DNA of 45,519 bases from a virus (IMGVR_UViG_3300020380_000908:1-45519); one strand, 5' to 3'; positions 16,810 through 41,260 are shown, counted from the first letter of the stretch. A program made the numbers and translations. Notes: a model not told the origin generated them from the sequence alone.

Positions 16810-17118
16810 ATGAGTGAGACAAATAATAATAAAAATGAATGGTCCGAAAGAGAAGTAGGAGCACTGTGGTTAAAGCAAAGCCCAAACCAAAAATACTTTT
16901 CAGGACATGTAACTGTTGAAGATGAGTTTGGAGATGAAAAGAAGCTCCAAGTGGTTGTTTTTAGAAATAAAAATAAACAAAAAGACAATCACCCTGACTT
17001 CAGAATCTATAAGTCAGTACCCAGAAACACAAGTGGCCAAAAACCACCAACAAATGAAGAAGCACAAGAGGCTGTTTCTTCAGGTGTTCAAGAAGTCCAA
17101 GAGGATGAATTGATTTAA
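16810..17118 (+). CDS. DUF736-like protein, possible ssDNA-binding protein
   Basis: EVGALW....KYFSG....VVFRN..K...HPDFRIY with an acidic tail. Confidence 0.6.
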   Translation: MSETNNNKNEWSEREVGALWLKQSPNQKYFSGHVTVEDEFGDEKKLQVVVFRNKNKQKDNHPDFRIYKSVPRNTSGQKPPTNEEAQEAVSSGVQEVQEDELI

Positions 17119-17137: not shown

Positions 17138-17176
17138 AAACTCCCCTATTCTGTCATTTAGTAGGGGAGTTTTTTT
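17138..17176 (+). terminator. Rho-independent terminator
   Basis: AAACTCCCCTA/TAGGGGAGTTT stem plus T-run. Confidence 0.85.
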
Positions 17177-17214
17177 CTTTACAAAAAAGACTACAAATAC
17201 TATAATTAACAAGT

Positions 17215-23245: not shown

Positions 23246-23258
23246 TTTGTTAAGAAAA

Positions 23259-23453
23259 ATGAAAACACTAGCAACAGTAACAGTAGGGATGCTGCTTTTT
23301 GCAGCGTCAGGATGTACAAGTACACTAACAGTAGGCCCACAAGCTAACACAGACGCCGTCATTGGCGGTGATGTTAGCACTGAGTCTGCATCAGTAACAC
23401 TACCTCTTGTCAAGGCTACTCTTGGAGAGGCGAAAGGTGGTGGTAAAAAGTAA
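23259..23453 (+). CDS. Small lipoprotein
   Basis: MKTLATVTVGMLLFAASG-C lipobox; ATG at 23259 preferred. Confidence 0.65.
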   Translation: MKTLATVTVGMLLFAASGCTSTLTVGPQANTDAVIGGDVSTESASVTLPLVKATLGEAKGGGKK

Positions 23454-23508: not shown

Positions 23509-24021
23509 TTAGAATATTACCTTACCATGTATTTCCTTTAAAGAAACTAAACCATACCAAGAAGATTCCCTGTTATCTCCTATTACCCAAATATATCCTT
23601 TAGGAATCTCAATCTCACCCTCATTTTCGTTAAAAAATAAATTCATCTCTTCATCCAAATAAAATATGATTCTAGCGTTAGAAAAATCATCTTTTACTTC
23701 TTTATTATTTACAAATATCTTACCCCACTTTATCTGAACTTTTTCTCCAGACACAGCGATGACTCTCTTAACTAACTCATCTCCTTCTTCATCGGGGTCT
23801 CCTAATATAATTATTTCATTTTTTTCAGGTAAGAAAAATTTATAAGTCCATTCATCCACTAAAAGCTTTTGTCCGTCTTTGAAAGTCGGGTACATACTGT
23901 CACCTCGCACCTCTGACCAAGAATACCCTTGATGAAAAACAACAGCAAACACGCAGAATAAAGTAAATATTCTTACTTTTCTACTGAGATTTTTAACGCT
24001 GAAGAAACTAAAATCCACCAT
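23509..24021 (-). CDS. lepB: Signal peptidase I (S26)
   Basis: TM segment, then GDSMYPT (Ser), LVKRV (Lys) and GDNR..S. Confidence 0.88.
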   Translation of the reverse strand: MVDFSFFSVKNLSRKVRIFTLFCVFAVVFHQGYSWSEVRGDSMYPTFKDGQKLLVDEWTYKFFLPEKNEIIILGDPDEEGDELVKRVIAVSGEKVQIKWGKIFVNNKEVKDDFSNARIIFYLDEEMNLFFNENEGEIEIPKGYIWVIGDNRESSWYGLVSLKEIHGKVIF

Positions 24022-25435: not shown

Positions 25436-25463
25436 TTGATTTTTCAAAAATATCTATTATACT
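25436..25463 (+). promoter_or_regulatory. Sigma70-type promoter
   Basis: TTGATT-16-TATACT; GTG start 6 nt downstream. Confidence 0.65.
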
Positions 25464-25469
25464 TCTAGT

Positions 25470-25850
25470 GTGGCTAAATTCGGCAAAAAAGAATACAGTA
25501 TTCTTGTTAAACTCTTTCTAAAAGAGCCAGTAAAGATTAATTATCCAGAGCAATATGGCGTTGCAAAAAAACTTTTAACTCATTACCCAAACATAAAGTT
25601 CTGGCAGTCTTCCGCTCTTTCAGAAAAAAAGTCCAGACTGAACTCTTTGGCTTGGTTTTTAACAGAGGATGGAGTAAACTTTCTAGAGGACTCATATAAT
25701 TATTTTGTAAAAATTCAAAAACTTGACAAGAATGTCTTTGTCAATCAATCAATACCACTACAAGAAAAGCCTGTTGGTGAAAGCGTAGGTCTTAAAACTA
25801 ACAAAAAGAAATCATTAATGGAATTTATAAAAGATGCCGAGAAAAAGTAA
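25470..25850 (+). CDS. Hypothetical protein
   Basis: First ORF of the recA operon. Confidence 0.6.
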   Translation: MAKFGKKEYSILVKLFLKEPVKINYPEQYGVAKKLLTHYPNIKFWQSSALSEKKSRLNSLAWFLTEDGVNFLEDSYNYFVKIQKLDKNVFVNQSIPLQEKPVGESVGLKTNKKKSLMEFIKDAEKK

Positions 25851-26934
25851 AACTGACGCAGGAGAAGGTGTTTCACCAGTTGATCAAATCCAAGCTTATC
25901 TTGAGCAAAATAAAGGAGATCACTATAACTTTGAGGAAGAACGTAGCTACGTTGTTTCAAGCGGTAGTCTTTTAATGGATATTGAAATGGGTGGGGGCAT
26001 CGGCCCCGGAGTTATAAGAGCCTCTGGAATAACAGAGGGAGGTAAAACCTCTTGTGCTTTAGCCTTTGCTAAAAACTTCCAAAAAATGGACAACGCAATG
26101 GTTGTTTATTTTAAAGCCGAAGGAAGGCTCACTAAAGAAATGGTAAAAAGAGCAGGTATTGACCAAGACCCCCTCAAGTGGAGAGAGATAAAATCCAATG
26201 TATATGAAACAGTTATAAACTTAATGAGGCAGCTTGTTCAAAACAATGATAGAAATTTTAAATATATGTTTATCATAGACTCTATGGACTCTTTGGTTCC
26301 AAAGGCTGATTTAGAAAAAGGCCCAGAAGAAGCCAACAAGGTCGCTGGAGGAGCATTACTAAGCTCAGACTTCTTAAGAAAGATGGCCCTAGGACTCTCT
26401 ACTAGAGGTCATATCTGTTACATGATTTCTCAAGTTAGAAGTAATGTCTCAATTAATCCATATCAAAAAGGAGACGCAAAAGTAACAAACGCCTCTGGAG
26501 GCAATGCCCTACTACACTACAGTGATTGGATTCTGGAATTTCAAGAAAGACACCTAAATGACATCATATCCTCAGAACCTAGGGGTAAAGGAGACATATA
26601 TGGTCATTGGTGTAAAATTATTTTCAGAAAAACACCCAATGAGAAAACAGGTACACTGGTCAGATACCCAATTAGGTACGGCCAGCAAGATGGAAAAAGC
26701 ATCTGGGTTCAATATGAAGTCGTAGATATGCTTTTAGCATTTGATATGGCCAAAAAAGCTGGAGCTTGGGTTACCATCTCTGATGACCTCATAGAAGAGG
26801 TTGACAAGGAACTTAAAATAGAGTTCAAAAAACAGCATCAAGGCATAGATAACCTTAAGAAATACTTTGAAGAAAACGAAGAGATAGGAAAATATCTCTT
26901 CAATAAATTCAGAGAAACCTTAAAGAAGAGTTAA
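25834..26934 (+). CDS. RecA/UvsX-like recombinase
   Basis: SSGSLLMD..MGGG, G..EGGKTS (Walker A), IIDS (Walker B), ISQVR, SGGNAL.HY. Confidence 0.88.
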   Translation: MPRKSKTDAGEGVSPVDQIQAYLEQNKGDHYNFEEERSYVVSSGSLLMDIEMGGGIGPGVIRASGITEGGKTSCALAFAKNFQKMDNAMVVYFKAEGRLTKEMVKRAGIDQDPLKWREIKSNVYETVINLMRQLVQNNDRNFKYMFIIDSMDSLVPKADLEKGPEEANKVAGGALLSSDFLRKMALGLSTRGHICYMISQVRSNVSINPYQKGDAKVTNASGGNALLHYSDWILEFQERHLNDIISSEPRGKGDIYGHWCKIIFRKTPNEKTGTLVRYPIRYGQQDGKSIWVQYEVVDMLLAFDMAKKAGAWVTISDDLIEEVDKELKIEFKKQHQGIDNLKKYFEENEEIGKYLFNKFRETLKKS

Positions 26935-26944: not shown

Positions 26945-27508
26945 ATGAAAAAAAAGATAAATGCCAAATACTATAGAGATTGGTATAAATCTTTGTCTGC
27001 CGAAAAAAGAGAAAAAAGACTCAAACAAAAAAGAGACTACTACCACCGCACTAAAGATAAACCAGAGCAAATAGAAAGAAGAAAAAAATACTATCAAGAG
27101 AATAAAGAACAACATTCCAAAAACGGAAAGCTTTGGAGGAGAAAAAATAAGAAATACGCATCTGAACACCAAAAAGCTTACCGCAAGGCTAACCCACACA
27201 TACAAGCGAATCTAGCAGCAAAAAGAAACGCGCAGAAAAAAAACGCTACGCTCCCTAGCACGGATTTAGATTTAATAAAGGAAATCTACAAAGAAAAAAG
27301 CCGCATGAACGAGCAGGGCAAAACAGAGTACCAAGTAGACCACATCATACCTATATCTATCGGTGGAGCGCACCATCAAGATAATCTTAGAATCATAACT
27401 GCTAAAGAAAATAGGAAAAAACATGGGAAATACATCCCGGAACTCGGCGGCGTTTGGGCTGATAATGATTTAGCAAAAGAAACTAAAAGAAAGCTTGGCA
27501 TAAAATAA
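26945..27508 (+). CDS. HNH endonuclease, probably homing-type
   Basis: Lys/Arg-rich helical N-terminus; YQVDHIIP...GG.H...NL.I.....N..K. Confidence 0.8.
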   Translation: MKKKINAKYYRDWYKSLSAEKREKRLKQKRDYYHRTKDKPEQIERRKKYYQENKEQHSKNGKLWRRKNKKYASEHQKAYRKANPHIQANLAAKRNAQKKNATLPSTDLDLIKEIYKEKSRMNEQGKTEYQVDHIIPISIGGAHHQDNLRIITAKENRKKHGKYIPELGGVWADNDLAKETKRKLGIK

Positions 27509-27930: not shown

Positions 27931-27993
27931 TTGCCAAATAACCGAATATAACCGCATATAAGCGCACATAAGGCCACATAAGGCCACATGAGC
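27931..27993. repeat. Degenerate 10-bp tandem repeats upstream of dnaB
   Basis: ACCGAATATA ACCGCATATA AGCGCACATA AGGCCACATA AGGCCACATG. Confidence 0.8.
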
Positions 27994-28012
27994 TTGCGAC
28001 GGTATTTTTTTG

Positions 28013-28040
28013 TAGATTTTATAAAAAGAAATTGTATACT
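28013..28040 (+). promoter_or_regulatory. Sigma70-type promoter for dnaB
   Basis: TAGATT-16-TATACT. Confidence 0.5.
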
Positions 28041-28057
28041 AATTTTAACGAATAAAA

Positions 28058-28075
28058 GACGAAGACGAAGACGAA
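28058..28075 (+). repeat. (GACGAA)3 in the dnaB leader
   Basis: Three exact hexamer copies ending 10 nt before the ATG. Confidence 0.8.
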
Positions 28076-28085
28076 GGAAAAATAT

Positions 28086-29573
28086 ATGGAATCAATATAC
28101 TCAATACAGATAGAAAAACATGTTTTAGGTGGATTAATTAAAGACCCAAAAGTTTTACCAGATATAGAAAGGTTTATCTCTGAAAAAGATTTTGTTAATG
28201 AAGTTCATCAAACAATATATTGTGTTTTAAAGAATGCATTTTTCAACAATGAAACAATAGACTCTGTTGTTCTTGCTGAGAAAATTAAAAATATAGGAAT
28301 CTCATTTAAAGATGATATAAACATTTATGATTACCTTGAAGCTATTTCTTTTAATACAATTAATAAAAAGGGCATCATTGAGGCTTGCAGAGAACTGGCA
28401 AAGTTAACTGTAAGAAGGAAGCTTTACCACAAGTGTGATGAAATTAAAAAGTTTCTCCAAGAGAGTGGAGATAAAGCTATAGATGAGATTGTGTCAACTT
28501 CAGATCACCTATATGGAGACTTAATCAGAGATTTTGAATGTGTTGACAGTGAGCCAGAAGACTTGTTTGAAGGTTTGCCTGAGATGATAGAAGAGTCAGG
28601 AGAAAACCCAACAGAAGATTTTGGATTCACAACACCTCATGATGAATTTAACAGATTGTATGGAGGGCTTCGGCCCGGAAACCTTTATGCTGTGGTCGCA
28701 AGACCCGGACAAGGTAAGTCAACATTCATTGCAGACCTTTGCAGAAAGACAGCAAAAATTCACAACATCAAATGTCTCATCTTGGATACAGAGATGGACA
28801 CAAAAGATGTTAAGTTCAGAATTGCATCAGCAATTTCAGGGGTTTCACTATGGCATCTTGAAACTGGTAATTGGAGGAAAAACCCAGAACTAGTAAATAA
28901 AGTCAGAGACTCTTACTCTGAATTAAAACAACAAGATGTTTATCATTTTTCAGTAGGAAACAAAACAATTGATGAAATCTGTTCATTGGTTAGGAGATGG
29001 TATTACTCTGAAGTAGGCAGAGGTAATCCATTTATCCTAGGTTATGACTATGTAAAGCTAACAGGAGAAAAAGTTGGAAACAACTGGGGTGAACACCAAG
29101 CTGTTGGTGAAAAAATAGACAAGCTTAAAAAGCTTTCAGAAGAACTCAACTGCCCAATTATAACAGCGATGCAAATGAATCGCTCTGGGGAAAATCATAA
29201 CAGAAGAGGTAATGCAGTTATTGATGACAGTTCTGCAATATCCCTTTCAGACAGAATTCAATGGTTTGCTTCTTTTGTTGCAATCTTTAGAAGAAAGACT
29301 GTTGATGAAATAGCTGAAGATGGTGAAGACTTTGGTACTCACAAATTAGTACCACTTAAAACTAGATTCCAAGGTAAAGATGCTGCTGGGCATCATGATC
29401 TTGTAAGAAGAGTTAGGCCAAATGGTAATGTGAGTTTTCAAAACAATTTCTTAAACTTTAATGTAAGAAATTTTAATGTCACAGAGGCAGGGTCACTGCA
29501 AAACATTATTGATGCACAAATGGATCAACATCTTTTGGATGATTCAGCATCAAATGATGGAGAAGTGATGTAA
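28086..29573 (+). CDS. dnaB: Replicative DNA helicase
   Basis: E..VLG N-domain, ARPGQGKS (Walker A), DTEM, YDY, QMNR, K.R. Confidence 0.92.
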   Translation: MESIYSIQIEKHVLGGLIKDPKVLPDIERFISEKDFVNEVHQTIYCVLKNAFFNNETIDSVVLAEKIKNIGISFKDDINIYDYLEAISFNTINKKGIIEACRELAKLTVRRKLYHKCDEIKKFLQESGDKAIDEIVSTSDHLYGDLIRDFECVDSEPEDLFEGLPEMIEESGENPTEDFGFTTPHDEFNRLYGGLRPGNLYAVVARPGQGKSTFIADLCRKTAKIHNIKCLILDTEMDTKDVKFRIASAISGVSLWHLETGNWRKNPELVNKVRDSYSELKQQDVYHFSVGNKTIDEICSLVRRWYYSEVGRGNPFILGYDYVKLTGEKVGNNWGEHQAVGEKIDKLKKLSEELNCPIITAMQMNRSGENHNRRGNAVIDDSSAISLSDRIQWFASFVAIFRRKTVDEIAEDGEDFGTHKLVPLKTRFQGKDAAGHHDLVRRVRPNGNVSFQNNFLNFNVRNFNVTEAGSLQNIIDAQMDQHLLDDSASNDGEVM

Positions 29574-30487
29574 TGGACTTCAAAAACATACTGCTTGATT
29601 TAGGTTATTCTAATATCAAAGATAACGGTAGAGAGCTTCGCATGAGGCCACTCTACCGTGATTCTAATAATGATACGGTACTTTCTGTTAGGAAAGATAC
29701 TGGTCATTTTATTGATTTTAGCAAAAACGTAAGTGGTTCATTTGAGTATTTAGTTCAATTAACTCTTGGATTAGAAAATGTAGATCAAGCCAGAGTTCAG
29801 TTAAAAGAAAAATATTCTATAACTGAAATAAAGCGGGAACATAGACCCAAAGTTAGCGGTACAAAGACTTTCCCCAGAGAATATCTAACCAAGCTAAAAC
29901 CAGATCATTCTTATTGGCTGGGTAGAGGGGTGTCACTTGATACTTTAAAAACTTTCGGTGGAGGTCTTGTTGAAAGCGGGACAATGGCAAATAGATACGT
30001 TTTCCCTATTTTAGACGAAAAACAAAAACTAGTAGGCGTTACCGGAAGATACACTAAGAATATAACAAGCAAACGAATGCCTAAATGGCTTCACAAAGGT
30101 AAGGTTTCTGAGTGGAACTACCCCTTCCAGCTTAACAAAGAGATTATAACTGAAAAAAAAGAAATAATAATGGTTGAAAGCATAGGCGATATGCTTGCTC
30201 TTTGGGATTGCGGAATCAAAAACATTTTAGTAGTTTTTGGTCTTAATTTATCGCCTAAAATGATCAGCTTGCTAATAAAAGCTGATCCACGTATAGTCTA
30301 TATAGCATTTAACAATGACTCGTTAGACAATTCAGCGGGTAATGAGGCGGCTGAAAAAGTAAGAAATAAAATATCTAAATACTTTGACATAAATCAGGTT
30401 AAATTAGCTCTTCCCAATAAAAACGATTTCGGGGAGATGAACAAAGAAGAGATACTTGGATGGAAAAAACAGTATGGAGTATCATAA
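29573..30487 (+). CDS. dnaG: DNA primase (TOPRIM)
   Basis: RYVFPI.D....VG..GR, PKW, VESIGD, FNND...AG, DFGE. Confidence 0.82.
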   Translation: MDFKNILLDLGYSNIKDNGRELRMRPLYRDSNNDTVLSVRKDTGHFIDFSKNVSGSFEYLVQLTLGLENVDQARVQLKEKYSITEIKREHRPKVSGTKTFPREYLTKLKPDHSYWLGRGVSLDTLKTFGGGLVESGTMANRYVFPILDEKQKLVGVTGRYTKNITSKRMPKWLHKGKVSEWNYPFQLNKEIITEKKEIIMVESIGDMLALWDCGIKNILVVFGLNLSPKMISLLIKADPRIVYIAFNNDSLDNSAGNEAAEKVRNKISKYFDINQVKLALPNKNDFGEMNKEEILGWKKQYGVS

Positions 30488-30740
30488 AGTTAAAATAATT
30501 ATTAAAAATAATTCAGGTCTACATGCTAGACCCTGTTCTGCCTTCGTTAAGACTGCAAACTCCTTTGAATCTAAAATAAAGGTTAAAAAAGGAGAAAATT
30601 CTGTTGATGGCAAAAGCATAATAGGACTAATGACTCTGGCAGCTGCATTTGGAGACAGGATAACTATAGAGGCCAGTGGCCCAGACGCAAAAAAAGCGGT
30701 GACTGCGCTCGAAAAAATTGCAATTACTAGTTTTGACTAG
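30474..30740 (+). CDS. ptsH: HPr phosphocarrier protein
   Basis: GLHARP (His15 site) and DGKSIIGLMTL (Ser46 site); ATG at 30474 preferred. Confidence 0.92.
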   Translation: MEYHKVKIIIKNNSGLHARPCSAFVKTANSFESKIKVKKGENSVDGKSIIGLMTLAAAFGDRITIEASGPDAKKAVTALEKIAITSFD

Positions 30741-30751
30741 TATTATAATAT

Positions 30752-30979
30752 ATGGCAAAAGACCCGTGTCAAGAGGCTCTTTCAACCATAAAAGAACTGA
30801 AGCCTCATGTAAGTCAAATACTAGAATTACTTAATATTCATGAGAAAGAAATGTATTTTAATTTTTTAAGATATAAGCAAGGAGAAGAGGATTATAATAA
30901 ATTGGGTGAATTTAAAAAAGTAAAAAATTTAATAGAATATCTACTTACGATTGACGAAGATAATAATTACTCAAAATGA
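30752..30979 (+). CDS. Hypothetical protein
   Basis: ORF coupled to the next gene. Confidence 0.55.
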   Translation: MAKDPCQEALSTIKELKPHVSQILELLNIHEKEMYFNFLRYKQGEEDYNKLGEFKKVKNLIEYLLTIDEDNNYSK

Positions 30980-31548
30980 GATTAGATCACATAGCTTATA
31001 GAGTAAAGGATAGGCATAAAACTGCTGAATTTCTTTATAATTGTTTGGGCTATTCCGTGGCTTTAGAATTTGATTTAAAATTTGATGACGGCTCAACAAC
31101 CGACTGTTTAGCTATGACCCCTCCCGAAGAAAGACCTGTTGACGTATTAGAGTGGGACATTTTACTTGCTGACGCTGATGATATAGGAAAAGCTAAATTT
31201 CATTCATATCATTGCCCCCCAGAAATCTTTGTTTCCGATGGCCCAAAAGGCTCTATCGTGGGCGATTGGGTTAAAGAGCGTGGAGGTATTGGAGGAATAC
31301 ATCACTTAGCTTATCAAGTTGAGGATGTTGAAAAAACGATGAATGATTGGAGTGAAAAAGGTTATGCGGAATGGTACTCTGAAAAACCTTTAGTGTGCAA
31401 AAAAACTAAATTAATTCAGGTATTTTCTAAACCCTCTGAACTTACTGGAGTCATATACGAACTAATAACACGCGGAAAGGATAGCAAAGGTTTTTGCGAA
31501 ACAAATGTAAAATCTTTAATGGAAAGCACAAGAGACTTGAAAGGATAA
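30976..31548 (+). CDS. VOC-superfamily metalloenzyme, HPPD/HglS(DUF1338)-like
   Basis: LDHIAYR, GIHHLAY, LIQVF, YELITR, GF...N.KSLMEST, giving a His-His-Glu triad. Confidence 0.7.
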   Translation: MRLDHIAYRVKDRHKTAEFLYNCLGYSVALEFDLKFDDGSTTDCLAMTPPEERPVDVLEWDILLADADDIGKAKFHSYHCPPEIFVSDGPKGSIVGDWVKERGGIGGIHHLAYQVEDVEKTMNDWSEKGYAEWYSEKPLVCKKTKLIQVFSKPSELTGVIYELITRGKDSKGFCETNVKSLMESTRDLKG

Positions 31549-33086
31549 TGATGAGAGATTTTGAGGGAAGAAATTATATTGATGGTCAATGGAGGGAAAC
31601 TCCTGAGATGTACACAAAAATTAATCCCGCTACCGGAAAAGCGCAAGGAGCCTTTCCTGTCAGCGATAAAGATGAAGTAAACAAGTCTGTTCTTAGTGCT
31701 AGAAAAGCTTTCAAAAAATGGAAAAAAGTTAGTCGTTTTGTACGATCTGACTACATGAACAGAGTGGCTCAATTAATTGAAAGAGACAAAGAAAAATTAG
31801 CCACAATTATCTCCCTAGAAACTGGAAAAAATTATAACGAGAGTGTTGCGGAAGTTAACGAAGCCCTACATATGGCTCAGTTTGCGTTTGGCTCTGGCCG
31901 CTACAGTCATGGCGAAGCTGTTTCTTCTGAAATTGAAGATAAAGACGCCTACATGCTTAGAAAGCCCAAAGGAGTAGTAGCAATTGTAACTCCATTTAAT
32001 TTTCCACTAGCTATTGGTATGTTTTGGAATGCGGCTCCCGCTTTAGTGGAAGGAAATACTATAGTAATTAAACCAAGCGAAGATGCCCCAATGTCAACCC
32101 AAGCCGCCGTTCAGATTTACGAAGAAGCTGGTATCCCGCATGGCGTTATTAATTTAGTGCATGGACATGGGCAAACTGGAGATTTTTTAGTACGCGATGA
32201 CGTTGATCATATTTGTTTCACGGGTTCAGCTGATGTTGGACAACATATTCGTAAAGTTGCCGCTGAATCTTGGAACAAAACAACATCTTGCGAGCTAGGT
32301 AGTAAGTCAGCCTGTATCGTTTTTGATGATGTAGAAATTCCTCTTGCTTTAGAAGCTTGTGTAGCTAGTGCATTTAAACTGTCTGGGCAAAGATGTGTGT
32401 CTTCGGGTAGAATTTTAGTTCAAAGAACAATTTACAATGATTTTGCAAAGAGGTTTGCCGAAGAAGCGTCTAAATTGAAAACAGGTAATCCATTTAAAAA
32501 GAACAGTGGAACCTGCGGTACTCCCGCTGCCGTTTGCTGGGATGAGATTGTACCTAATGAAGAAATATATTACGGGCCAATCATAAATCAACAGGGATTT
32601 GATAAAATAAGGTATATGAATAGCTTGGTGGCTTCGGACCCCAAATCAGAAATATTACTTAACCCCACTTATACAGGAACAGGCAAATCTTACTATTCCA
32701 CACCAATGGTATATAAAAGAGAGTGGTCAAATTGTGATGCAGGATTTTTAAGGAACGAAGTATTTGGACCCCATGTTGCAATTATTCCATTTGACACAGT
32801 TGAAGACGCAATTCGAATTTACAACGATACTGAGTATGGTTTAGCTGTTGGCATTTTAACTAACGACTTCAGAAAAGCCAGAATTATGAGGGATGAATGT
32901 GACGCAGGTATGATTTACTGGAATGGAGGTTCTATCGCTGCTGAGTCTCATTTAGCCTTTGGTGGCGTTAAAAAATCTGGTAATGGATTTCCTAGCGCAG
33001 CCAGAACCTTTAGGGCAGTTACTCATGAAATTAGCTGGACAGTAAATCATGCAGATAAACTTACTTTTCCACAAGGAATGAAATGA
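31548..33086 (+). CDS. NAD-dependent aldehyde dehydrogenase
   Basis: TPFNFP, KPSE, FTGS, ELGSK, GQRC (catalytic Cys), EVFGP, FGG.K.SG.G; ATG at 31548. Confidence 0.93.
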   Translation: MMRDFEGRNYIDGQWRETPEMYTKINPATGKAQGAFPVSDKDEVNKSVLSARKAFKKWKKVSRFVRSDYMNRVAQLIERDKEKLATIISLETGKNYNESVAEVNEALHMAQFAFGSGRYSHGEAVSSEIEDKDAYMLRKPKGVVAIVTPFNFPLAIGMFWNAAPALVEGNTIVIKPSEDAPMSTQAAVQIYEEAGIPHGVINLVHGHGQTGDFLVRDDVDHICFTGSADVGQHIRKVAAESWNKTTSCELGSKSACIVFDDVEIPLALEACVASAFKLSGQRCVSSGRILVQRTIYNDFAKRFAEEASKLKTGNPFKKNSGTCGTPAAVCWDEIVPNEEIYYGPIINQQGFDKIRYMNSLVASDPKSEILLNPTYTGTGKSYYSTPMVYKREWSNCDAGFLRNEVFGPHVAIIPFDTVEDAIRIYNDTEYGLAVGILTNDFRKARIMRDECDAGMIYWNGGSIAAESHLAFGGVKKSGNGFPSAARTFRAVTHEISWTVNHADKLTFPQGMK

Positions 33087-33736
33087 ACACTTTAATTATT
33101 GATTCATCAGCTTCGAGAACAGACTTGTGTGAAGCGGGAAAAAAATACGGTACAGATAAATCGCCCTACCACGTAGGTACGCCTGATTGCCCCCACTCGC
33201 ATCCTTATACCGCAATCTACGACTTACTATTTGCACCCTTGAGGCACAAAGAAGTCAAGTTGGGAGAAATAGGTATCGCTCGGCTGGCCTCCATGAAATG
33301 TTGGAGAGAATATTTCCCTTACGCAAAATTGCATGGATTCGAGTTTGATTCTAATTTATTAGAGCGTGGCATCAATGAAAACATGGATAACGCTAGCTAC
33401 TCATTTATAAATGTTGAAGACACAAACTCCATAGACACTGCGCTGTCAGACGCTGGTGGAGACTTTGACATATTAATAGACGACGCATTACATAATGTCG
33501 CCTGTAACTCGAACGTAATAAATACTGCTTACAAATACTTAAAAACAGGAGGACTTTTAATTACGGAAGACATCTTTCGCGCTTATTCTTGTGAAGAATA
33601 TATGTCAGCGATAGAACCTGTTACTAAATATTTTTCGTTGACGACTTTTATTACTACCGAGCATGATTTAAGAAACTCAGAAGGCTGGGATAATGATAGA
33701 TTGCTGGTGTTAGTTAGAAACGATACAAAGGAATAA
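33083..33736 (+). CDS. Class I SAM-dependent methyltransferase
   Basis: YGTDK..H.Y, LGEIG, FDILIDD..H, LK.GG...ED. Confidence 0.75.
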   Translation: MNTLIIDSSASRTDLCEAGKKYGTDKSPYHVGTPDCPHSHPYTAIYDLLFAPLRHKEVKLGEIGIARLASMKCWREYFPYAKLHGFEFDSNLLERGINENMDNASYSFINVEDTNSIDTALSDAGGDFDILIDDALHNVACNSNVINTAYKYLKTGGLLITEDIFRAYSCEEYMSAIEPVTKYFSLTTFITTEHDLRNSEGWDNDRLLVLVRNDTKE

Positions 33737-33740
33737 AGTA

Positions 33741-34856
33741 ATGAATGATCAAAAAAGAGTTTTAATTTTCGGCATGGGAAGAATGGGTAAAGCTATATCT
33801 TGGTGTATGTCTAAGTTTGGCAATCATATAATTTCCGTTGATAAAGATATAGATACGTCTCACGGTTTAGATGTTCCTTTGGATTTTTTAGTCGCAGAAA
33901 ATGAAAACGACTATAAAAGGACGATGGAATTGTGTAGTCCCGATTTAGTAATTTCTTCTTTACCTTATTTCCTGAATGAATCAATCGCCATGATGGCTAT
34001 AGAAAAAGGTATACCTTACTGCGATTTAGGAGGAAGCGTTCCTGTTTCTGCTACTATAAATAATCATGCCGAAGTTCATGCTAAAAAACCAGTTATTACA
34101 GACTTGGGGTTAGCTCCGGGATGGGTAAATATATTAGCAGAAGAAGCTTGCGATTCTTTTAATGAAAAAATTGTAGAAGTAAAAACTATGGTAGGAGGCT
34201 TGCCGGTTTATAAACATAACCCTCCATTTAATTATACGATAACTTGGTCTATAGATGGCTTGATAAATGAGTATATAGATGACTGCCAAGTCTTAATAGG
34301 CGAACAAGTTTCCAATCAATACGGAATGGAAGGCTTAGAAGATGTTTATTGCAGATCGATAGATGAAGAGTTGGAAGCGTTTTACACAAGCGGAGGAGCC
34401 TCTCATAGCATTAAATCAATGCGTGATAGGGGGGTAGAAAACTTTTCGTATAAAACTTTGAGATACAAGGGTCACAATGAAATTATAAAACTCTTACTTA
34501 GAAGTAAAATAGATAAAAGCTGCGTAAAAGAAACCATTCAAAAAATTTGCACCCCTAACGATCCTTCTTCGTATTTTGATTTTGTAATAATTAAATGCAT
34601 AGCAATTGGTCAATCTGGAAAAACTTGGGATAAAGAACTGAAAATAAAAGGAGGAAATGTTGGTAAAAATAGTTTTTCATCCATGCAGAAAGCAACCTCG
34701 TTCGGTATATCCTGCGTAGCAGAACAAATAGTAAAAGGAGATATTGAAGGCGGTAAGTTGGGGTATAAAGATGTTCGTTACGATAAGTTTAATGAATACT
34801 TAAATGTATTAAAGGAAGCTTGGCGTGATGAAGATTACGAAATACCATTAAAATGA
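33741..34856 (+). CDS. Saccharopine dehydrogenase-family / lysine 6-dehydrogenase-like oxidoreductase
   Basis: GMGRMG, YCDLGG, GLAPG, WSIDGLINEY, EAFYTSGG, YKTLRY.GH. Confidence 0.85.
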   Translation: MNDQKRVLIFGMGRMGKAISWCMSKFGNHIISVDKDIDTSHGLDVPLDFLVAENENDYKRTMELCSPDLVISSLPYFLNESIAMMAIEKGIPYCDLGGSVPVSATINNHAEVHAKKPVITDLGLAPGWVNILAEEACDSFNEKIVEVKTMVGGLPVYKHNPPFNYTITWSIDGLINEYIDDCQVLIGEQVSNQYGMEGLEDVYCRSIDEELEAFYTSGGASHSIKSMRDRGVENFSYKTLRYKGHNEIIKLLLRSKIDKSCVKETIQKICTPNDPSSYFDFVIIKCIAIGQSGKTWDKELKIKGGNVGKNSFSSMQKATSFGISCVAEQIVKGDIEGGKLGYKDVRYDKFNEYLNVLKEAWRDEDYEIPLK

Positions 34857-34981
34857 GATTTTTAAAAGATTTAATAGGTTTAATTTATGTAATAGCTCTT
34901 GCAGTTTGGTTCTTTTTTTCTGCTATTTTTGGTGGAATTTTTCTTGACTTAAAAGAAAGATTTGGTAAACTGTTTAAGTAG
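34853..34981 (+). CDS. Small membrane peptide (42 aa, not in ORF track)
   Basis: MRFLKDLIGLIYVIALAVWFFFSAIFGGIFLDLKERFGKLFK*; ATGA overlap with the upstream gene. Confidence 0.5.
   Translation: MRFLKDLIGLIYVIALAVWFFFSAIFGGIFLDLKERFGKLFK
34944..34971 (+). promoter_or_regulatory. Sigma70-type promoter
   Basis: TTGACT-16-TAAACT with TGn. Confidence 0.6.
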
Positions 34982-34994
34982 ACTTTTGGTGGTT

Positions 34995-35972
34995 ATGGGA
35001 AAAGTATTATCAGCATCTAGAATTGGCACTTTTGAAAAATGCTCTTGGTCTTATTGGTGTAATTACCACCTTAAAGTGCCTCAACACGGCAACGATGGCG
35101 CACATAGAGGAACTGTGTGCCATTTAGTTTTTGAACTTCTTTTAAGGAAAAAACATAAACATCACTTTGATTCAATCATAAAAGATGGAACTGTTATAAA
35201 CAATAAAGCAATAGTCAGACTTGTTGAAAAGAATTTAAGAAAGCTAAAAGCATACAATGAAGGTAACTTTGATTTATGCATGAAAATGATCCTAGTTGGA
35301 TTAAATCATGAATTCTATGGTAATGGATCAGAGATAGAAGAGCCAGTTTCAGAGCTAGAGTTCCTCTTGGAAAGTAAAAACCCAGAATACAAAATAAGAG
35401 GTTACATAGATAAAGTCTTCAAGTATGAAAGCAAAGTAAAGATTGTAGACTATAAATCTAGTAAAAAGAAATTTAAGGGAGAAGAACTCAGTGCAAACCT
35501 ACAAGCAATGGCTTATACTCTTGCATCCAAGAAACAAATATTTAAAAATATTAAAGATGTTGAAGTTGAGTTTCTGTTTTTAAAGTTTCCAAGACAACCC
35601 GCTCAACAAGTAATAGTTACAGATGAACAGTTGAAAGGGTTTGAGCATTACTTGGAACATGTGTATAAATTAATTAACAATTTTTCTGTAAAGGATGCGA
35701 GAAGTAATTTTGCCTCCGACAACCCAAGTACTAGATGGATGTGTAAAGCTGGTGCTACTTGGCAATGTCCATATTATGAAGAAGTAGAATACTTCGCTCT
35801 TAAGGATGAATATGATGACACCTTAAAGACAGCCTTTAAAAAAGAAGATTTACCTAAAGCCAAAAAAGGCCAAAGAATTGTAAAATTAAGATATGAAGGA
35901 TGCCCCGCGCACTCTTATGCGCGTTCCTCGACGCCTTCTGATGGCGAAGATGATGATATATTTAATATATAA
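34995..35972 (+). CDS. PD-(D/E)XK exonuclease, Cas4/AddB-like (possible Fe-S cluster)
   Basis: LSASRI..F.KC, GT..H, IRGYID, IVDYKSS, Q..AY, C-terminal C....CPY; ATG at 34995 preferred. Confidence 0.8.
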   Translation: MGKVLSASRIGTFEKCSWSYWCNYHLKVPQHGNDGAHRGTVCHLVFELLLRKKHKHHFDSIIKDGTVINNKAIVRLVEKNLRKLKAYNEGNFDLCMKMILVGLNHEFYGNGSEIEEPVSELEFLLESKNPEYKIRGYIDKVFKYESKVKIVDYKSSKKKFKGEELSANLQAMAYTLASKKQIFKNIKDVEVEFLFLKFPRQPAQQVIVTDEQLKGFEHYLEHVYKLINNFSVKDARSNFASDNPSTRWMCKAGATWQCPYYEEVEYFALKDEYDDTLKTAFKKEDLPKAKKGQRIVKLRYEGCPAHSYARSSTPSDGEDDDIFNI

Positions 35973-35985
35973 CCAAAGTTAGTTC

Positions 35986-36013
35986 TTGACTTTATTAAAA
36001 AAAGTCGTATTAT
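35986..36013 (+). promoter_or_regulatory. Sigma70-type promoter
   Basis: TTGACT-16-TATTAT; ATG 6 nt downstream. Confidence 0.7.
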
Positions 36014-36019
36014 ATTCTT

Positions 36020-36772
36020 ATGCATGAAATATTGCCACTGTTTAAAACTCACTATAGTTTAGGCAGATCAATTTTAAATTTAAATATAGAAGATAATCAG
36101 CCCGATGAAGCTGATTCCGTATTTTCCATAGCTAGGGAGCAAGACTTGAAAGAGCTTGTGCTCGTTGAAGACACTATGACGGGGTTTTTGGAAGCGTATC
36201 ACAACTGCAAAGAAGCTGGCATTAAATTAGTATTTGGATTAAGAATGCGAGTATGTATAGATGCCCTTGAAAAGAATGAAGACTCTAGAAAGACTGAAAG
36301 TAAAATTATAGTCTTTCCCAAAAACATAGACGGATATAAAAACTTAATTAAAATATCTACATTTGCATCAAGGCAAGGATTTTATTATTACCCAAGAGTG
36401 GACTATAAAACTCTTAAAAGTTTTTGGAATGATAAAGATTTAAAATTAGTTATACCATTTTACGATTCTTACGTGTTCAATAACACCTTATACAATAACC
36501 TTTGTGTACCTGAATTAGATTTCACAGAACCAGTTTACTTTCTGGAAGACAATGACTTACCCTTCGATGAATTAGTAGCTAAAAAGATTAGTAATCTAAC
36601 TAGTAATATTCAAAAAGCGCAAAGTATATTTTATAGAAATAAAAAAGACTTTAAAGCGTATCTTACTTATAAATGTATTAATAATAGAAGTAGCTTAGAT
36701 AAACCAGAGCTTGATCACATGGCTAGTAACGAGTTTTGTGTGGAATCTTGGAGAGAAAAAAATAATGGATGA
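36020..36772 (+). CDS. Stand-alone PHP domain of DNA polymerase III alpha
   Basis: THYSL, ED.M.G, GIKLVFG, KN..GYKNLIKI.T, FYYYPRVD. Confidence 0.8.
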   Translation: MHEILPLFKTHYSLGRSILNLNIEDNQPDEADSVFSIAREQDLKELVLVEDTMTGFLEAYHNCKEAGIKLVFGLRMRVCIDALEKNEDSRKTESKIIVFPKNIDGYKNLIKISTFASRQGFYYYPRVDYKTLKSFWNDKDLKLVIPFYDSYVFNNTLYNNLCVPELDFTEPVYFLEDNDLPFDELVAKKISNLTSNIQKAQSIFYRNKKDFKAYLTYKCINNRSSLDKPELDHMASNEFCVESWREKNNG

Positions 36773-37403
36773 AGATTTTTTAAGATTTAGTAGAGATAAA
36801 GAGTACGTTTTTCTTGACTGCGAGACATTTAATTTATGCTTAAATTCTTGTCATAACTTACCTTGGCAGATAGCTATGATTAAGGTTAAAGGAGATGAAA
36901 TAATCTCTGAAAAAGATTACCATATAAAGTGGGATACTCATTTGTCAATAAGTGCAGATGCAGCTAGGATAACTAAATTTAATCCCAAACTATATGAGAA
37001 AAAAGCCTTACCCGTCGAAGAAGTATTTCCAACGATTAAAGATTGGTTAGATAAATGTGATTACTTAATAGGCCACAACTTTCTTGGGTTTGATCTTTAC
37101 CTCATTAAAGACCTTTACGCATACATGGGAGAATCTTACAAACCGTTAGTAAATAAAATTATTGATACAAATTGCCTTGCTCGCGGTATCAAAACAGACA
37201 ATAGATATACTCAAGACCAAAATTTACTTGAGTACCAATACAAAATGTACCACACAAGAGTTAAAGGAGTCAGAACTAATCTATCTTCTTTAGGTAAGGA
37301 GTATGAAATAGATCATGACTACGAAAAACTACATGACGCTCTAGTAGATTTACAATTAAATATTAAAGTCTGGAATAAAATTAAATGGCAGGTTGACTTA
37401 TGA
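36765..37403 (+). CDS. DEDDh 3'-5' exonuclease (DnaQ/epsilon-like)
   Basis: FLDCET, GHNFLGFD, IDT, LHDALVD; ATG at 36765. Confidence 0.85.
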   Translation: MDEDFLRFSRDKEYVFLDCETFNLCLNSCHNLPWQIAMIKVKGDEIISEKDYHIKWDTHLSISADAARITKFNPKLYEKKALPVEEVFPTIKDWLDKCDYLIGHNFLGFDLYLIKDLYAYMGESYKPLVNKIIDTNCLARGIKTDNRYTQDQNLLEYQYKMYHTRVKGVRTNLSSLGKEYEIDHDYEKLHDALVDLQLNIKVWNKIKWQVDL

Positions 37404-39937
37404 GTTTTGTTGAAGATTTCCAAGATATAAACCTCAATATGCACGGGGTAAGACTTCCGTCTTTTGAAGTCGCTTTGAAAGACAAAAGAAGCCTTGGCGT
37501 AAGCGAAGATATAGGTAATGAGGAATTCTTAAAAGCCCTTTGCGAAAAAGGTATGGAAGACCTTGGTTTGGAAGGAGAAAAGTATCAAGAAAGGTTTGAC
37601 TATGAGTTTAAAACTGTAAAAGAATTAGGATTTATAGATTATCTTTTATTGGTTTGGGAAGTGGTAAACTATTGTAAAAAGGAAGACATACCCACTGGAG
37701 TTGGCAGAGGCTCCGCCGCAGGATGTTTACTACTTTACTCTATGGGCGTTACTAAAATCGACCCAATTAAGTATGAGCTTTTCTTTGAAAGATTCATCTC
37801 TAAGATAAGAGCTAAAAAAACTATAGTAGATGGAATAACTTATTTAGATGGTTCTTTGATGATGGATGTAGATTTAGATATTTGTTACTACAACCGTCAA
37901 AAAGTTCTTCAATATTTGGAAGAAAAATTCGAAGGCAAAACTTCAAAAATCTCCACTCTCAACACCTTAAGCGGAAAACTTTGCATTAAAGAATGTGGCA
38001 AGGTTGCTGGTGCAAAAACAGAAGTGGAAATGAATAGGATTTCATCAATGATTCCTAAAGTTTTTGGTCAAGTTAAAGACCTGAAAGAAGCTTACGCTGA
38101 AGAAGAAGAATTCAGAAATTGGTGTGATGAAAATAGAGAAACTTATGATATTTCTTTAAAGATAAAAGGCTTAAATAAAAATAAGGGAGTTCACCCTTCA
38201 GCTATATCTTTATCTTACGAATCAATGGAAGATAGCTGCCCCACAGAACTTACTTCTGACAAAAAAAGCTTTGTGTCATCTTATGATATGAATTGGGTTT
38301 CTATGTTTAACGTAAAGTTAGATATTCTAGGGCTTAGGGCTGTATCAGTTGTTGATGATGTTTGCAAAAGCATTGGTATAGATGTTTCCGACGTTGATGT
38401 AGATAGTGATTTAATTTACGACAATCTACAAAACCTAAGAACTCCACATGGTCTTTTTCAAATAGAGGCTGAAACCAACTACAGGGTATGTCAAAAAGTT
38501 AAACCTAAGAACTTAGAGCAGTTAAGTGGCGTTCTAGCCTTGGCTAGACCGGGAGCTTTAGCTTTCGCTAATCAATACGCTGAATACGTTAATGATGGTA
38601 AATACGAAGCCATCCACCCGTTCTTCGACGACATCCTTTCCTCGACAGGTGGTGTGGCTTTATACCAAGAGCAACTTATGAAAATGGCTCATAAAATAGG
38701 ATTCACTCTTGATGAGTCTGAAATCTTAAGAAGGATTGTGGGCAAAAAGAAAGTTTCTGAAGTACGTAAATGGAAAAAGAAAATTAAAGATAAGGTAAAA
38801 CAAAATAATTTAGATGAAGAAATAGGAGATATTCTTTGGGGTGTTTTAGAGGATTCAGCTAATTATTCTTTTAATAAGTCTCACTCTATTTCTTATGCCA
38901 TGCTGGCAGCTATTACTATTTATCTGAAGTTTAAGTACCCAAAACAGTTTTTCTTGAGTTTATTGAAAATGACTCGTCATGAGCCAGACCCAATTCAAGA
39001 AATATCAAAAATACAAAGAGAAATGCATAATTTTGGGGTAAAACTTTTGCCCCCTCACATTATTAAATCTCAAATGGATTTCTCAGTAGAAGGTGATGAT
39101 ATAAGATTTGGATTATTATCTATCAAAGGAATATCTGAAAAGTCTATTGAAAAATTAAATAATTTTAAAGATAATTACTCTACAAAATTTGAAGTTTTCG
39201 AGGGAGCTAAAGAGTCTGGTTTAACTATTGGGATTCTATCAGCATTGATACAGGCTGGAACATTTCAGGGCTTTCAGATGTCTAGAAGCAAAATTGTCTA
39301 CGAAGGTCAACTTTGGAACATCTTACTCAAGAAAGAAAAAGCTACTGCCTTAAAGCTAGGTGAAAAATTCGACTACGACCTAGTTAAGATAGTAAAACAT
39401 ATGTGCGGCATGAAAAATGATAATGGTAAACCAATTATAAAAGAAAGCAGACTACAAACCATTAAAAAACGCACGGATGCCTACAAAGAAATTTACCACA
39501 AGAATAATAGCTCGGAGTCATTTGCTAATTGGTTTTATGAAAACACCTTACTTGGCTACACCTATGGTAAAAGGTTAATTGACATTTTTCGTGAAAAAAC
39601 AAACGGGTTAATGAGTGTCGCCTCCTGTGAGGAAGCAGAAGTAGATGAAACCGTGGCTTTCGTTGGTACTATCGAAGATAAGCCCTACTTTGGTAAGTCT
39701 AGAAATGATAACGAATACATGAAAGTCTTTGTTAAAGATGAAACTGCTGCCATAAAAGTTATGATCTTTAATAATAAGTTAGCTAAAATGATTACGGAAA
39801 ACGGCAGCAAGCACCCAGAGCAAGGCAATATAGTAATTGTCAGAGGCGTCAAGAAAGATGAGGTAGTATTCGCTGACCAAATAGCCATTCAAACTAATAA
39901 AATATACACCAAGCTTTCAGACCTTAAAAGTGCTTGA
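37400..39937 (+). CDS. dnaE: DNA polymerase III alpha catalytic subunit (PHP-less)
   Basis: GRGSAAG, FERF, DVDLD, GVHPS, KLDILGL, FQ.E, RPG, YQEQ.M, YSFNKSHS..Y, IRFGL..IKG, C-terminal OB fold. Confidence 0.95.
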   Translation: MSFVEDFQDINLNMHGVRLPSFEVALKDKRSLGVSEDIGNEEFLKALCEKGMEDLGLEGEKYQERFDYEFKTVKELGFIDYLLLVWEVVNYCKKEDIPTGVGRGSAAGCLLLYSMGVTKIDPIKYELFFERFISKIRAKKTIVDGITYLDGSLMMDVDLDICYYNRQKVLQYLEEKFEGKTSKISTLNTLSGKLCIKECGKVAGAKTEVEMNRISSMIPKVFGQVKDLKEAYAEEEEFRNWCDENRETYDISLKIKGLNKNKGVHPSAISLSYESMEDSCPTELTSDKKSFVSSYDMNWVSMFNVKLDILGLRAVSVVDDVCKSIGIDVSDVDVDSDLIYDNLQNLRTPHGLFQIEAETNYRVCQKVKPKNLEQLSGVLALARPGALAFANQYAEYVNDGKYEAIHPFFDDILSSTGGVALYQEQLMKMAHKIGFTLDESEILRRIVGKKKVSEVRKWKKKIKDKVKQNNLDEEIGDILWGVLEDSANYSFNKSHSISYAMLAAITIYLKFKYPKQFFLSLLKMTRHEPDPIQEISKIQREMHNFGVKLLPPHIIKSQMDFSVEGDDIRFGLLSIKGISEKSIEKLNNFKDNYSTKFEVFEGAKESGLTIGILSALIQAGTFQGFQMSRSKIVYEGQLWNILLKKEKATALKLGEKFDYDLVKIVKHMCGMKNDNGKPIIKESRLQTIKKRTDAYKEIYHKNNSSESFANWFYENTLLGYTYGKRLIDIFREKTNGLMSVASCEEAEVDETVAFVGTIEDKPYFGKSRNDNEYMKVFVKDETAAIKVMIFNNKLAKMITENGSKHPEQGNIVIVRGVKKDEVVFADQIAIQTNKIYTKLSDLKSA

Positions 39938-39961
39938 CATTTTAAAAAAAACAAGTAACAT
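39934..39961 (+). promoter_or_regulatory. Sigma70-type promoter
   Basis: TTGACA-16-TAACAT; ATG 6 nt downstream. Confidence 0.7.
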
Positions 39962-39967
39962 ATACTT

Positions 39968-40555
39968 ATGATTAGTTTTTACAAACCTACCCCGAAAGTT
40001 ACAGGCACAGCCTTGTCCTTCTATCTCAACAAAAGAGACAATGCATTTTTTTCAGAGCTACTCAAGCAAGCTTCTTGGGATGCTAGCACTAGAAGGGCAA
40101 ATTTTCTTTCAAACAAAAAAGTAGAAGGTAAAAATGTTAATATTAAATTTAGCCAAGCCGAAATTGCTTCTTTCATAGATGCAATGGAAAGGAATGTTGA
40201 ATTTACTGGTTACCACGGAAGTAATCAGGTAGTAAAATTTTCTTTTGGCCCATACACACCCAAAACCAAAGATGAGCAGGGAAACTGGGTGGAAGGAACA
40301 GTGCAAAAGGGCTACTCCTTCAGAGTAACAAGAGAATCTAAAGAAGACTCCACAAATAAAGCTGGATTTCTTATTGGCTTAGATTATGGAGAAGCCCTCT
40401 TACTCAAAGAACATCTCAAGTACCTACTTCAACAAAGCTTTGAGATTGCAGATACAAGGTTGGAAGAAAAATTCAAAAACAACTATAAACAACAAAACAC
40501 TCCTCAACAACAAGACTCCCAGCCTATTGAAGTTGAAGAAGATGATCTGTGGTAA
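39968..40555 (+). CDS. Putative ssDNA-binding protein, Whirly/PC4-like fold
   Basis: Motif spacing resembles Whirly; acidic-aromatic tail EVEEDDLW; replication-cluster context. Confidence 0.55.
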   Translation: MISFYKPTPKVTGTALSFYLNKRDNAFFSELLKQASWDASTRRANFLSNKKVEGKNVNIKFSQAEIASFIDAMERNVEFTGYHGSNQVVKFSFGPYTPKTKDEQGNWVEGTVQKGYSFRVTRESKEDSTNKAGFLIGLDYGEALLLKEHLKYLLQQSFEIADTRLEEKFKNNYKQQNTPQQQDSQPIEVEEDDLW

Positions 40556-40558
40556 AAT

Positions 40559-41260
40559 ATGAAACTCAAAAAAATTAAAAGAAATGACAATGGCCTAATC
40601 TCTGGCAGTTCAGTTGATTATGTTTACAATGAAGATGGTTTTGTTGATTGGAGGAAGATGGTCAAGACTGATCACCTTGTCCCAAACAAGCAAAAAACAT
40701 CAGAGACAGATGTATCTAAGCTTGAAGACCATCAGTTAATTATTCTTCTGGCTGGCATTAAAGAGCTTGCTCAAATCAGAGGCTATACCAATGTCAGATA
40801 TGAAGTCACTAGCCCATCTCCAGAATATGTTGTTGCAACTTGCAGTATTGATTGGATTCCAAACTATGAGACAGAGGATCGCGCCGTAACGTTTTCGGCA
40901 ATAGGTGATGCCTCTCCACATAACACCCAGAGTTTTGCTAAGTTTTTCTTGGGGCCAATAGCAGAAAACAGAGCGTTTGTACGCTGTGTAAGAAACTTTT
41001 TGAAGATTAACATTGTTGGTCAGGATGAGCTTGGTCAAGCAAAGATAGCTTCTGATCCACATGATCAACCAGAAACACAAGCTAGTCCAGTTTCCCTGCT
41101 GAAGAACACCATGAAAGAGAAAGGGGTTACATTTGACAAGCTAAAAGCTCGGCTAGAAGCCGAGAAGTATGAGAAGGTTGATAAAATCAACACCCTAGAA
41201 GATATCCCAAAGGTTAAAATTTTTGAACTAATTGAAAGACTGAAGAAGATAAAGAAATAA
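40559..41260 (+). CDS. Putative single-strand annealing protein (Rad52/Sak-like)
   Basis: V.ATC.I...F...GDA...N....AE.RA..R..R pattern; lies next to the SSB-like gene. Confidence 0.5.
   Translation: MKLKKIKRNDNGLISGSSVDYVYNEDGFVDWRKMVKTDHLVPNKQKTSETDVSKLEDHQLIILLAGIKELAQIRGYTNVRYEVTSPSPEYVVATCSIDWIPNYETEDRAVTFSAIGDASPHNTQSFAKFFLGPIAENRAFVRCVRNFLKINIVGQDELGQAKIASDPHDQPETQASPVSLLKNTMKEKGVTFDKLKARLEAEKYEKVDKINTLEDIPKVKIFELIERLKKIKK

Follow-up and report, generated by a model that had tools for sequence, protein, structure and literature searches.

Why should six recombination and replication genes of one marine phage have lost CG dinucleotides while other genes beside them keep theirs? The question is raised by IMGVR_UViG_3300020380_000908, whose whole stretch of 45,519 nt (the window) is a linear fragment, about 29% complete, from a large uncultured marine phage. 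The fragment carries uvsX/recA, dnaB, a primase, a split dnaE polymerase, nrdAB, two sigma factors and two tRNAs, the tRNAs being all that an Rfam scan of the window returned. Its G+C content is 35%, and its 1009 CGs correspond to an observed/expected ratio (O/E) of 0.71. The CG loss is gene-specific, independent of sequence context, specific to one clade and current in dnaB, and the surviving CGs are biased towards predicted stems. The explanation favoured here, at somewhat below even confidence, is that these genes lost CG in this clade through selection against a factor cutting or modifying unpaired CG in mRNA. The six genes and two control features next to dnaB are the following:

28086..29573, plus strand: dnaB-type replicative helicase (Pfam DnaB, DnaB_C); strongest CG desert, TA-poor and CA/TG-rich
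25834..26934, plus strand: recA/uvsX (PHROG 97, Pfam RecA); partial desert with its core at about 26120-26934, 5' part hairpin-rich
34995..35972, plus strand: PD-(D/E)XK exonuclease (Pfam PDDEXK_1); desert tract 35125-35664
39968..40555, plus strand: predicted Whirly/MRP-fold single-stranded nucleic acid binding protein with an acidic tail (AlphaFold, Foldseek); ssb below
40559..41260, plus strand: Sak-like single-strand annealing protein, a weak assignment (Atlas scores 0.88-0.89 to SSAP_Sak clusters)
16810..17118, plus strand: DUF736-family gene with an acidic tail (Atlas 0.95-0.96 to DUF736 clusters); 1 CG vs 7.7 expected
29573..30487, plus strand: primase, internal control, overlapping the dnaB stop codon; CG normal (23 vs 19.4)
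27938..28085, plus strand: dnaB upstream region, CG present and unpurged; 10-bp direct repeats, a promoter-like site and short tandem repeats before the ribosome-binding site

CG-free gaps were located at 40216-40880 (664 nt), 28072-28671 (599 nt), 35099-35600 (501 nt), 28706-29167 (461 nt), 29181-29626 (445 nt) and 16845-17282 (437 nt). These six gaps of at least 430 nt compare with a mean of 0.04 and a maximum of 1 in 200 codon-resampled windows. A preliminary description of the window had placed deserts near 35101-35598 and 40218-40879, where the gaps of 501 and 664 nt indeed lie, and had counted six CGs in dnaB, whose positions (28671, 28676, 28697, 28706, 29167 and 29181) agree with the intervals it gave. 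Its figure of about 15 CGs in the first 600 bp of nrdA was reproduced exactly (15 in 19161-19760; 5+6+2+2). The gap at 16845-17282 and the DUF736 gene had been missed.

Chance and composition were ruled out by nulls controlled for codons and amino acids, so that the depletion survives the synonymous-codon shuffling that had been proposed as a check. Given its own protein and the codon usage of the genome, dnaB is expected to hold 41.3 ± 5.7 CGs in place of 6, and at its codon junctions CG occurs 3 times against 22.3 under within-gene synonymous permutation (p 0.0005, the floor of 2000 permutations). Among the 64 open reading frames (ORFs) tested, the other outliers were the Sak-like ORF 40559 (9 vs 18.7), ORF 39968 (3 vs 11.5), recA (15 vs 27.0) and the DUF736 gene; junction CG was mildly short in dnaE (38 vs 50.7, p 0.005). 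The nuclease gene, for which a desert had also been claimed, stands out as a tract but not as a whole gene (14 CG; junction 8 vs 13.5). A two-state model yielded seven CG-poor tracts, two of them weak (in nrdA and dnaE) and five strong or moderate (16847-17223, the recA core, the whole of dnaB, 35125-35664 and 39973-40858). Pooled over five genes that were chosen post hoc, after the data had been seen, junction CG amounted to 29 vs 79.0 expected, as against 601 vs 601.0 in all others. The limits of the dnaB desert are those of the ORF: the 300 nt before it hold 11 CG, its own first and last 300 nt none, and the first 300 nt 3' of it, in the primase, seven. An assembly artefact was ruled out, as independent contigs at 96% identity keep the desert and the dnaB stretch is present in 20 of 24 listed runs from 12 studies, marine where labelled (one run may be the source). 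Apart from the six genes, a milder CG-low, CA-high signature was seen in four small genes at 22967-23453 and 8699-9501, none of them significant singly.

In a comparison with a context-aware codon null, the six genes together contained 48 CG (129 expected), 342 TA (417), 364 CA (279) and 336 TG (286). All 16 flanking contexts of CG were at or near lower rates, several of them resting on few sites; because nearly all contexts are low, the depleted motif is the CG dinucleotide itself. At two-fold sites in dnaB, CG was found at 0/42. The sister dnaB at the related locus L034, with 93% protein identity and nearly equal base counts, differs from the window dnaB in having 29 rather than 6 CG, 128 rather than 91 TA, 72 rather than 113 CA and 86 rather than 113 TG. 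At codon junctions taken by themselves, the TA deficit is explained by redistribution, but the deficit over all frames stays. TA is, however, still polymorphic among alleles, its residual copies are not more paired, and it is mildly low in several of the same families in relatives too, so that CG is the clade-specific part. GA is not avoided in the six genes (425 vs 406.5 expected), and in 38 loci no other word was seen to be avoided by the same genes in other lineages. Restriction-site avoidance, which would bear genome-wide on a word of at least 4 bases, was ruled out, since CG is lost in nearly all contexts and in six genes only.

The rise of TG and CA on both strands alongside the fall of CG recalls methylation followed by deamination of 5-methylcytosine, the process given for CpG loss in Mycoplasma penetrans with M.MpeI (as cited in the accessible part of PMC11282364). 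Such decay is expected to be genome-wide and blind to ORF limits and hairpins, whereas junction O/E in the other genes of the window is 1.00 and the adjacent primase is normal; no C5 methyltransferase (PF00145) was found in the fragment, 29% complete as it is. A targeted variant, in which a CG-specific deaminase or 5-methylcytosine decay acts on single-stranded loci with hairpins as shields, would account for TG and CA as the products in excess. It would also fit the Arg CGN codons, which transitions cannot remove and which are least depleted (ratio 0.52, p 0.09, vs 0.38 and 0.34), as a mutational model would predict, and the NCG codons, where pairing of the opposite-strand C predicts retention (7/41 vs 4/91, p 0.035). 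However, it needs both strands to be exposed exactly over an ORF and decay to be raised about 30-fold (a rough estimate from allele variation). The dnaB branch shows no C>T or G>A excess (T>C 24, C>T 16) and no clear CG-type amino-acid changes, and the lower TA and raised C elsewhere are left unexplained. This variant is very improbable, and the least probable of the explanations weighed here.

Ordinary translational or mRNA-structure selection on highly expressed genes, working through codon pairs and extreme in the host of the clade, would require no dedicated CG reader. In the available text of PMC2585594, nnUAnn, nnCGCn and UUCGnn are commonly avoided and nnCAnn is preferred, which is the direction seen here; the codon use of the purged genes also resembles that of highly expressed genes, their C use at non-G contexts is the highest, TTA and ATA are low, and the mild TA deficit in relatives fits as well. 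Codon-pair bias as reported in that text nevertheless concerns particular pairs across ORFeomes and not a near-complete, clade-specific loss in chosen genes. The loss described here extends over two reading frames and essentially all contexts, including every two-fold site of dnaB, and the same families in relatives are normal. Short stems are unwound by ribosomes, and a dependence on pairing is accordingly not expected from such selection, which we consider improbable.

The trait is limited to one narrow clade, and orthologues below about 93% identity are without it. Among 74 rows for dnaB, the four lowest O/E values (0.13-0.23) belong to the window and to contigs at 96-100% identity, the next being 0.64; among 88 rows for recA, the four lowest (0.28-0.38) are alleles at 97-100%, with 10-15 CG each, and the next is 0.53 (both row counts include duplicates). 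The window is also lowest for ssb (34 rows), for the Sak-like gene (27 rows) and, narrowly, for the nuclease (0.49 vs 0.53; 54 rows), and the DUF736 allele of locus L053 has 3 CG. In non-redundant relatives, junction O/E is 0.94-1.00 in all six families, which rules out a family-wide trait, and none of the other ORFs, among 2963 distinct ones in 198 loci, is as CG-depleted as the window dnaB. The expectation that orthologues would share the pattern thus failed outside the clade, which speaks against a general phenomenon. The tree places the loss in dnaB on a branch whose length is about 0.13 substitutions per site. At L034, recA is CG-poor while dnaB and the nuclease are normal, and its recA is probably an exchanged allele. 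In three loci of another phage group (L193, L195 and L200), CG O/E is 0.20-0.32 genome-wide, and 2/52, 2/113 and 7/65 of their CGs, respectively, lie in perfect stems. Annotated phage records gave no match to dnaB and no cultured relatives, and a search for further clade alleles and for the remaining genome found none.

In dnaB, unlike the adjacent primase, the loss is still being maintained, in line with the claim that selection acts on CG. The dnaB alleles compared were those of the window, L002, L033 and L045, and a site was classed as CG-creating if a synonymous transition makes CG. Variable sites in dnaB comprised 2/136 of the CG-creating class and 46/321 of comparable others (p 4e-6); the corresponding counts were 14/59 and 100/243 in recA (p 0.009) and 2/22 and 17/65 in the DUF736 gene (p 0.08). 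As controls, the primase had 6/55 and 19/210 and nrdA 61/132 and 213/466, while nrdB, classed as normal, gave a weak signal (18/60 vs 82/185, p 0.03). Both CG gains in dnaB flank or extend a stem, one being paired and one lying in an internal loop, and over the same alleles the primase shows about five CG gains and two losses. This allele variation speaks against a single import event and in favour of a pressure that particular genes still experience.

It also bears on the possibility that the tracts are mosaic or relict pieces from a lineage purged of CG genome-wide, with interacting proteins moved together. Recombination does occur in these phages, as the CG-poor recA of L034 beside its normal dnaB and nuclease indicates; several deserts span part of a gene only, and marine phages that are CG-poor genome-wide exist. 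On the other hand, dnaB groups in the tree where it would be expected, as the sister of L034 and without a long branch, and it stays CG-free over a synonymous divergence of 0.12-0.14 while the linked primase gains CG over 0.06-0.09. The primase is CG-normal on all clade contigs, and no CG-free relative of the purged genes was found among 198-206 loci. A mosaic origin therefore has a low probability, ranking between codon-pair selection and targeted hypermutation.

Several features of the region were noted among the same alleles. The 10-bp direct repeats and a 6-bp tandem repeat at 27938-28080 vary in copy number among alleles and are absent from L034; the repeat region could be a replication origin. 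Two of them (L002:3499-4125 and L033:1934-2560) carry an ORF of 209 codons with normal CG precisely at the dnaB/primase junction; this insert is likely a free-standing homing nuclease. An HNH gene 3' of recA (26945-27508) is optional: L002 lacks it, contigs of two runs skip it, and L034 and L053 have divergent HNH genes in its place. Compared with three sister alleles, the recA allele of the window has 23 private T>C vs 5 C>T changes and is predicted to be far more structured; outgroups suggest that many of the Cs are ancestral.

Where CG survives, it tends to lie in local hairpins. All base pairing reported here is predicted. The hairpins of the preliminary description (28665-28676, 28694-28705, 29165-29184 and others) are present, those of dnaB being:

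28665..28708, plus strand: predicted pair of hairpins, capped by a UUCG and a GCAA tetraloop respectively; four of the six CGs of dnaB lie here
29165..29184, plus strand: perfect 6-bp stem, holding the remaining two dnaB CGs

In five depleted genes, 12/47 CGs lie wholly in perfect stems of at least 5 bp, compared with 24/907 elsewhere and with a mean of 0.68 and a maximum of 6 in 300 codon shuffles with the CG count fixed; 29/47 touch a stem of 4 bp or its tetraloop (null 6.6). The 12 stem CGs stem from five hairpins, and most are outside the emptiest tracts; CGs at 26001, 40216 and 40890 are unpaired exceptions. The stems at 28665..28708 are broken in L034, and the second is lengthened by a new C in alleles L002 and L033. 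Among four alleles, a hairpin of recA takes three different forms, each of them paired; for these alleles RNAalifold found changes on both sides in 1/42 pairs. In the 3' part of the nuclease gene, the coding-strand C is predicted to be paired in all ten synonymous-site CGs. In ORF 40559, the 5' half is without CG and the 9 CGs are grouped in three predicted hairpins.

In a counterfactual test, CG presence at candidate sites was scored by whether the C would be paired or open. CG was present at 28/172 sites with a paired coding-strand C vs 7/162 with an open one (p 3e-4). Neither pairing of the G (21/171 vs 16/142) nor that of the opposite-strand C (19/132 vs 20/224, p 0.12) was a predictor, and in a joint model only the sense C was significant (z 3.0). 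The counts for paired and open coding-strand C were 98/292 and 66/253 in control genes and 137/345 and 79/231 in ten orthologous genes (interaction z 2.7). GNRA or UNCG loops on stems of at least 4 bp were in excess on the sense strand (5 vs 1.6, p 0.03; antisense 1 vs 0.8). The claim that residual CGs are more paired than controls is thus supported, with the coding-strand C as the best predictor, but the CG-specific increment is small (z 1.66) and that part of the hairpin sparing is suggestive, as judged from predicted folds.

The products of the six genes are probably single-strand DNA proteins, four of them supported and two probable. ORF 39968 was modelled by AlphaFold with a pLDDT of 90.6, and Foldseek matched it to MRP1/MRP2 and WHY1-3 (E 1e-5 to 5e-4; TM about 0.5 by query). 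The model has a Whirly-type β-sheet/helix fold, from which nucleic acid binding is predicted. ORF 40559 has no match in Pfam or among PDB sequences and is a probable Sak-like annealing protein by weak assignment, its Atlas score being a lead only. Of the SSB/annealase pair proposed for the desert at 40218-40879, the first thus corresponds to a Whirly-fold protein, while the second is only weakly Sak-like. Fold searches on the DUF736 protein gave no clear match; its acidic tail suggests that it may bind single-stranded DNA.

In the favoured explanation, the loss would reflect selection and not mutation, and the substrate would be the coding-sense single strand, that is, the message. An enzyme would cut or modify unpaired CG in mRNA and so stop translation; base pairing of the C would lower the cost, with the result that CG would be kept mainly in local stems and paired C gained elsewhere. 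The purged genes would pay most if, as we presume from their families, their products were required in large amounts or as homo-oligomers during the activity of the factor. Why these particular genes were purged is the weakest step of this mechanism. An enzyme acting on mRNA is suggested because the limits are ORF-shaped, the dnaB leader is unpurged and retention depends on the coding-strand C. Such a factor is more likely to be a host defence enzyme than a phage timer encoded in the remaining 71% of the genome, because the trait arose on a single short branch, which would fit a change of host.

Several results weigh against this explanation. Besides the pairing being predicted, the purged genes favour C at paired non-CG sites as well (126/248 vs 82/229), which together with the extra pairing effect at CG of only z 1.66 means that a general benefit of structure offsetting a pairing-independent cost of CG also fits. 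Paired sites are still about twofold CG-depleted, and the tetraloop excess is gone when the stem cut-off is lowered to 3 bp (8 vs 5.9, p 0.26). No strand asymmetry was found in mean accessibility (0.206 sense vs 0.207 antisense), folding energy has no sense-strand bias (dnaB z -2.7 sense, -4.9 antisense), and G-U vs A-C changes in stems (42:38) carry no RNA-strand signal. Excess structure is lacking in ssb, the Sak-like gene and the L002 recA allele, which appear to have removed CG instead of hiding it. The primase, dnaE and nrdAB are replication genes yet unpurged, as are two tail genes, and the primase and polymerase also touch single-stranded DNA. The Arg CGN codons point the same way. Searches for close alleles of ssb, the Sak-like gene and the nuclease found none, and current selection therefore rests on dnaB, recA and, weakly, DUF736. 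No RegB-like or RelE-fold endoribonuclease or CG-binding factor was matched among 59 proteins compared with PHROGs and Pfam, covering 29% of the genome, nor does the host emerge from three genome contigs (with unrelated labels) or from HPr homologues (mostly without organism names). A comparison of 26 unannotated proteins with PADLOC gave one weak match and no candidate factor. Thus, of the earlier proposal of selection against accessible CG in single-stranded RNA, the depletion, its maintenance and the sense-C pairing stand, whereas the wobble changes give no RNA-strand signal and the CG-specific part is weak; the nuclease or binding protein that it invoked was not identified within the fragment.

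Some of these results would fit a reader of CG at the DNA level, either a host defence or the phage's own CG modification hindering transcription. Acting early, it would purge only genes that must function off the entering genome, ahead of replication or counter-defence, the hairpins being a separate benefit. CG is palindromic, so that loss on both strands fits DNA equally; there is no wobble or folding asymmetry, marine phages with genome-wide CG poverty are known from L193, L195 and L200, and promoter-like sites lie directly upstream of three purged genes. Against it, the dnaB leader retains CGs, as does the transcribed stretch that precedes the recA core, and the limits track the ORF. The PHP gene and ORF 17215 are promoter-proximal yet unpurged, which also rules out promoter proximity as the shared cause. 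Retention is better predicted by pairing of the coding-strand than of the template C, and the fragment, as noted, yielded no C5 methyltransferase. A DNA-level reader appears unlikely, although it is the foremost of the alternatives to an enzyme acting on mRNA.

Elsewhere in the window, HPr (30456-30740), signal peptidase I (23509-24021), a ClpP-like protease (4849-5577) and a SET-domain gene (10529-11008) are phage-borne, and 30976-34856 holds genes for a VOC-fold protein, an aldehyde dehydrogenase and a saccharopine/lysine dehydrogenase-like protein with a methyltransferase inserted among them. Sigma-70-like promoters were recognised at 16774-16812, 17180-17217, 25436-25472, 30718-30754, 35986-36022 and 39934-39970, as well as upstream of 12034 and 14593 (both minus strand), mostly with a 16-bp spacer. 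Because the second hexamer lies only 5-9 nt ahead of the start codon, their messages are probably leaderless.

Among known systems, CmdT of CmdTAC modifies GA in single-stranded RNA, is inactive on double-stranded RNA and blocks translation (available part of PMC11618068). A dinucleotide-specific anti-phage enzyme of this kind would give ORF-limited, pairing-sensitive selection. CmdT differs in reading GA and not CG and in aborting infection globally, and in the part of that source available escape is via an inhibitor, with no recoding of phage genes reported; a CmdT-like gene was not found in the fragment. T4 RegB acts at GGAG and is blocked by structure, but its motif is GGAG/U, mostly in translation initiation regions, and spared messages keep it (PMC3014915, as far as available), whereas in this clade a dinucleotide has disappeared from entire ORFs, and these make up no more than part of the replication set. 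Can2 is a dinucleotide-selective single-strand nuclease with a preference for CA (PMC10783487, available part). The six genes resemble animal RNA viruses in that CG is strongly down, TA mildly down and CA and TG up, UpA suppression being linked to CpG suppression in those viruses. ZAP, however, is a eukaryotic sensor with a genome-wide effect (PMC8844275, available part), as opposed to six genes in one clade of a double-stranded DNA phage. By analogy, the pattern may be understood as escape from the target motif of an enzyme like CmdT or RegB, but the motif of neither fits. The CG loss is real and unexplained by known systems, and no description of gene-restricted CG loss in a phage was found in the literature searched, most subscription journals and supplements lying outside its coverage.

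The finding points to a CG-reading activity in bacteria or their phages that comes with a natural readout: the motif is CG, the targets are the purged genes and the likely substrate is unpaired C on the coding-sense strand. Matched controls are at hand in the adjacent primase and in the sister dnaB, which has 29 CG at equal base composition and 93% protein identity. It is possible, if rather doubtful, that marine bacteria monitor unpaired CG in mRNA by a ZAP-like surveillance, from which the clade escapes gene by gene through recoding and folding the messages of its single-strand recombination and replication machinery alone. If the RNA reading is true, it would represent a bacterial counterpart of the CpG surveillance of viral RNA, with escape through synonymous recoding of selected genes.

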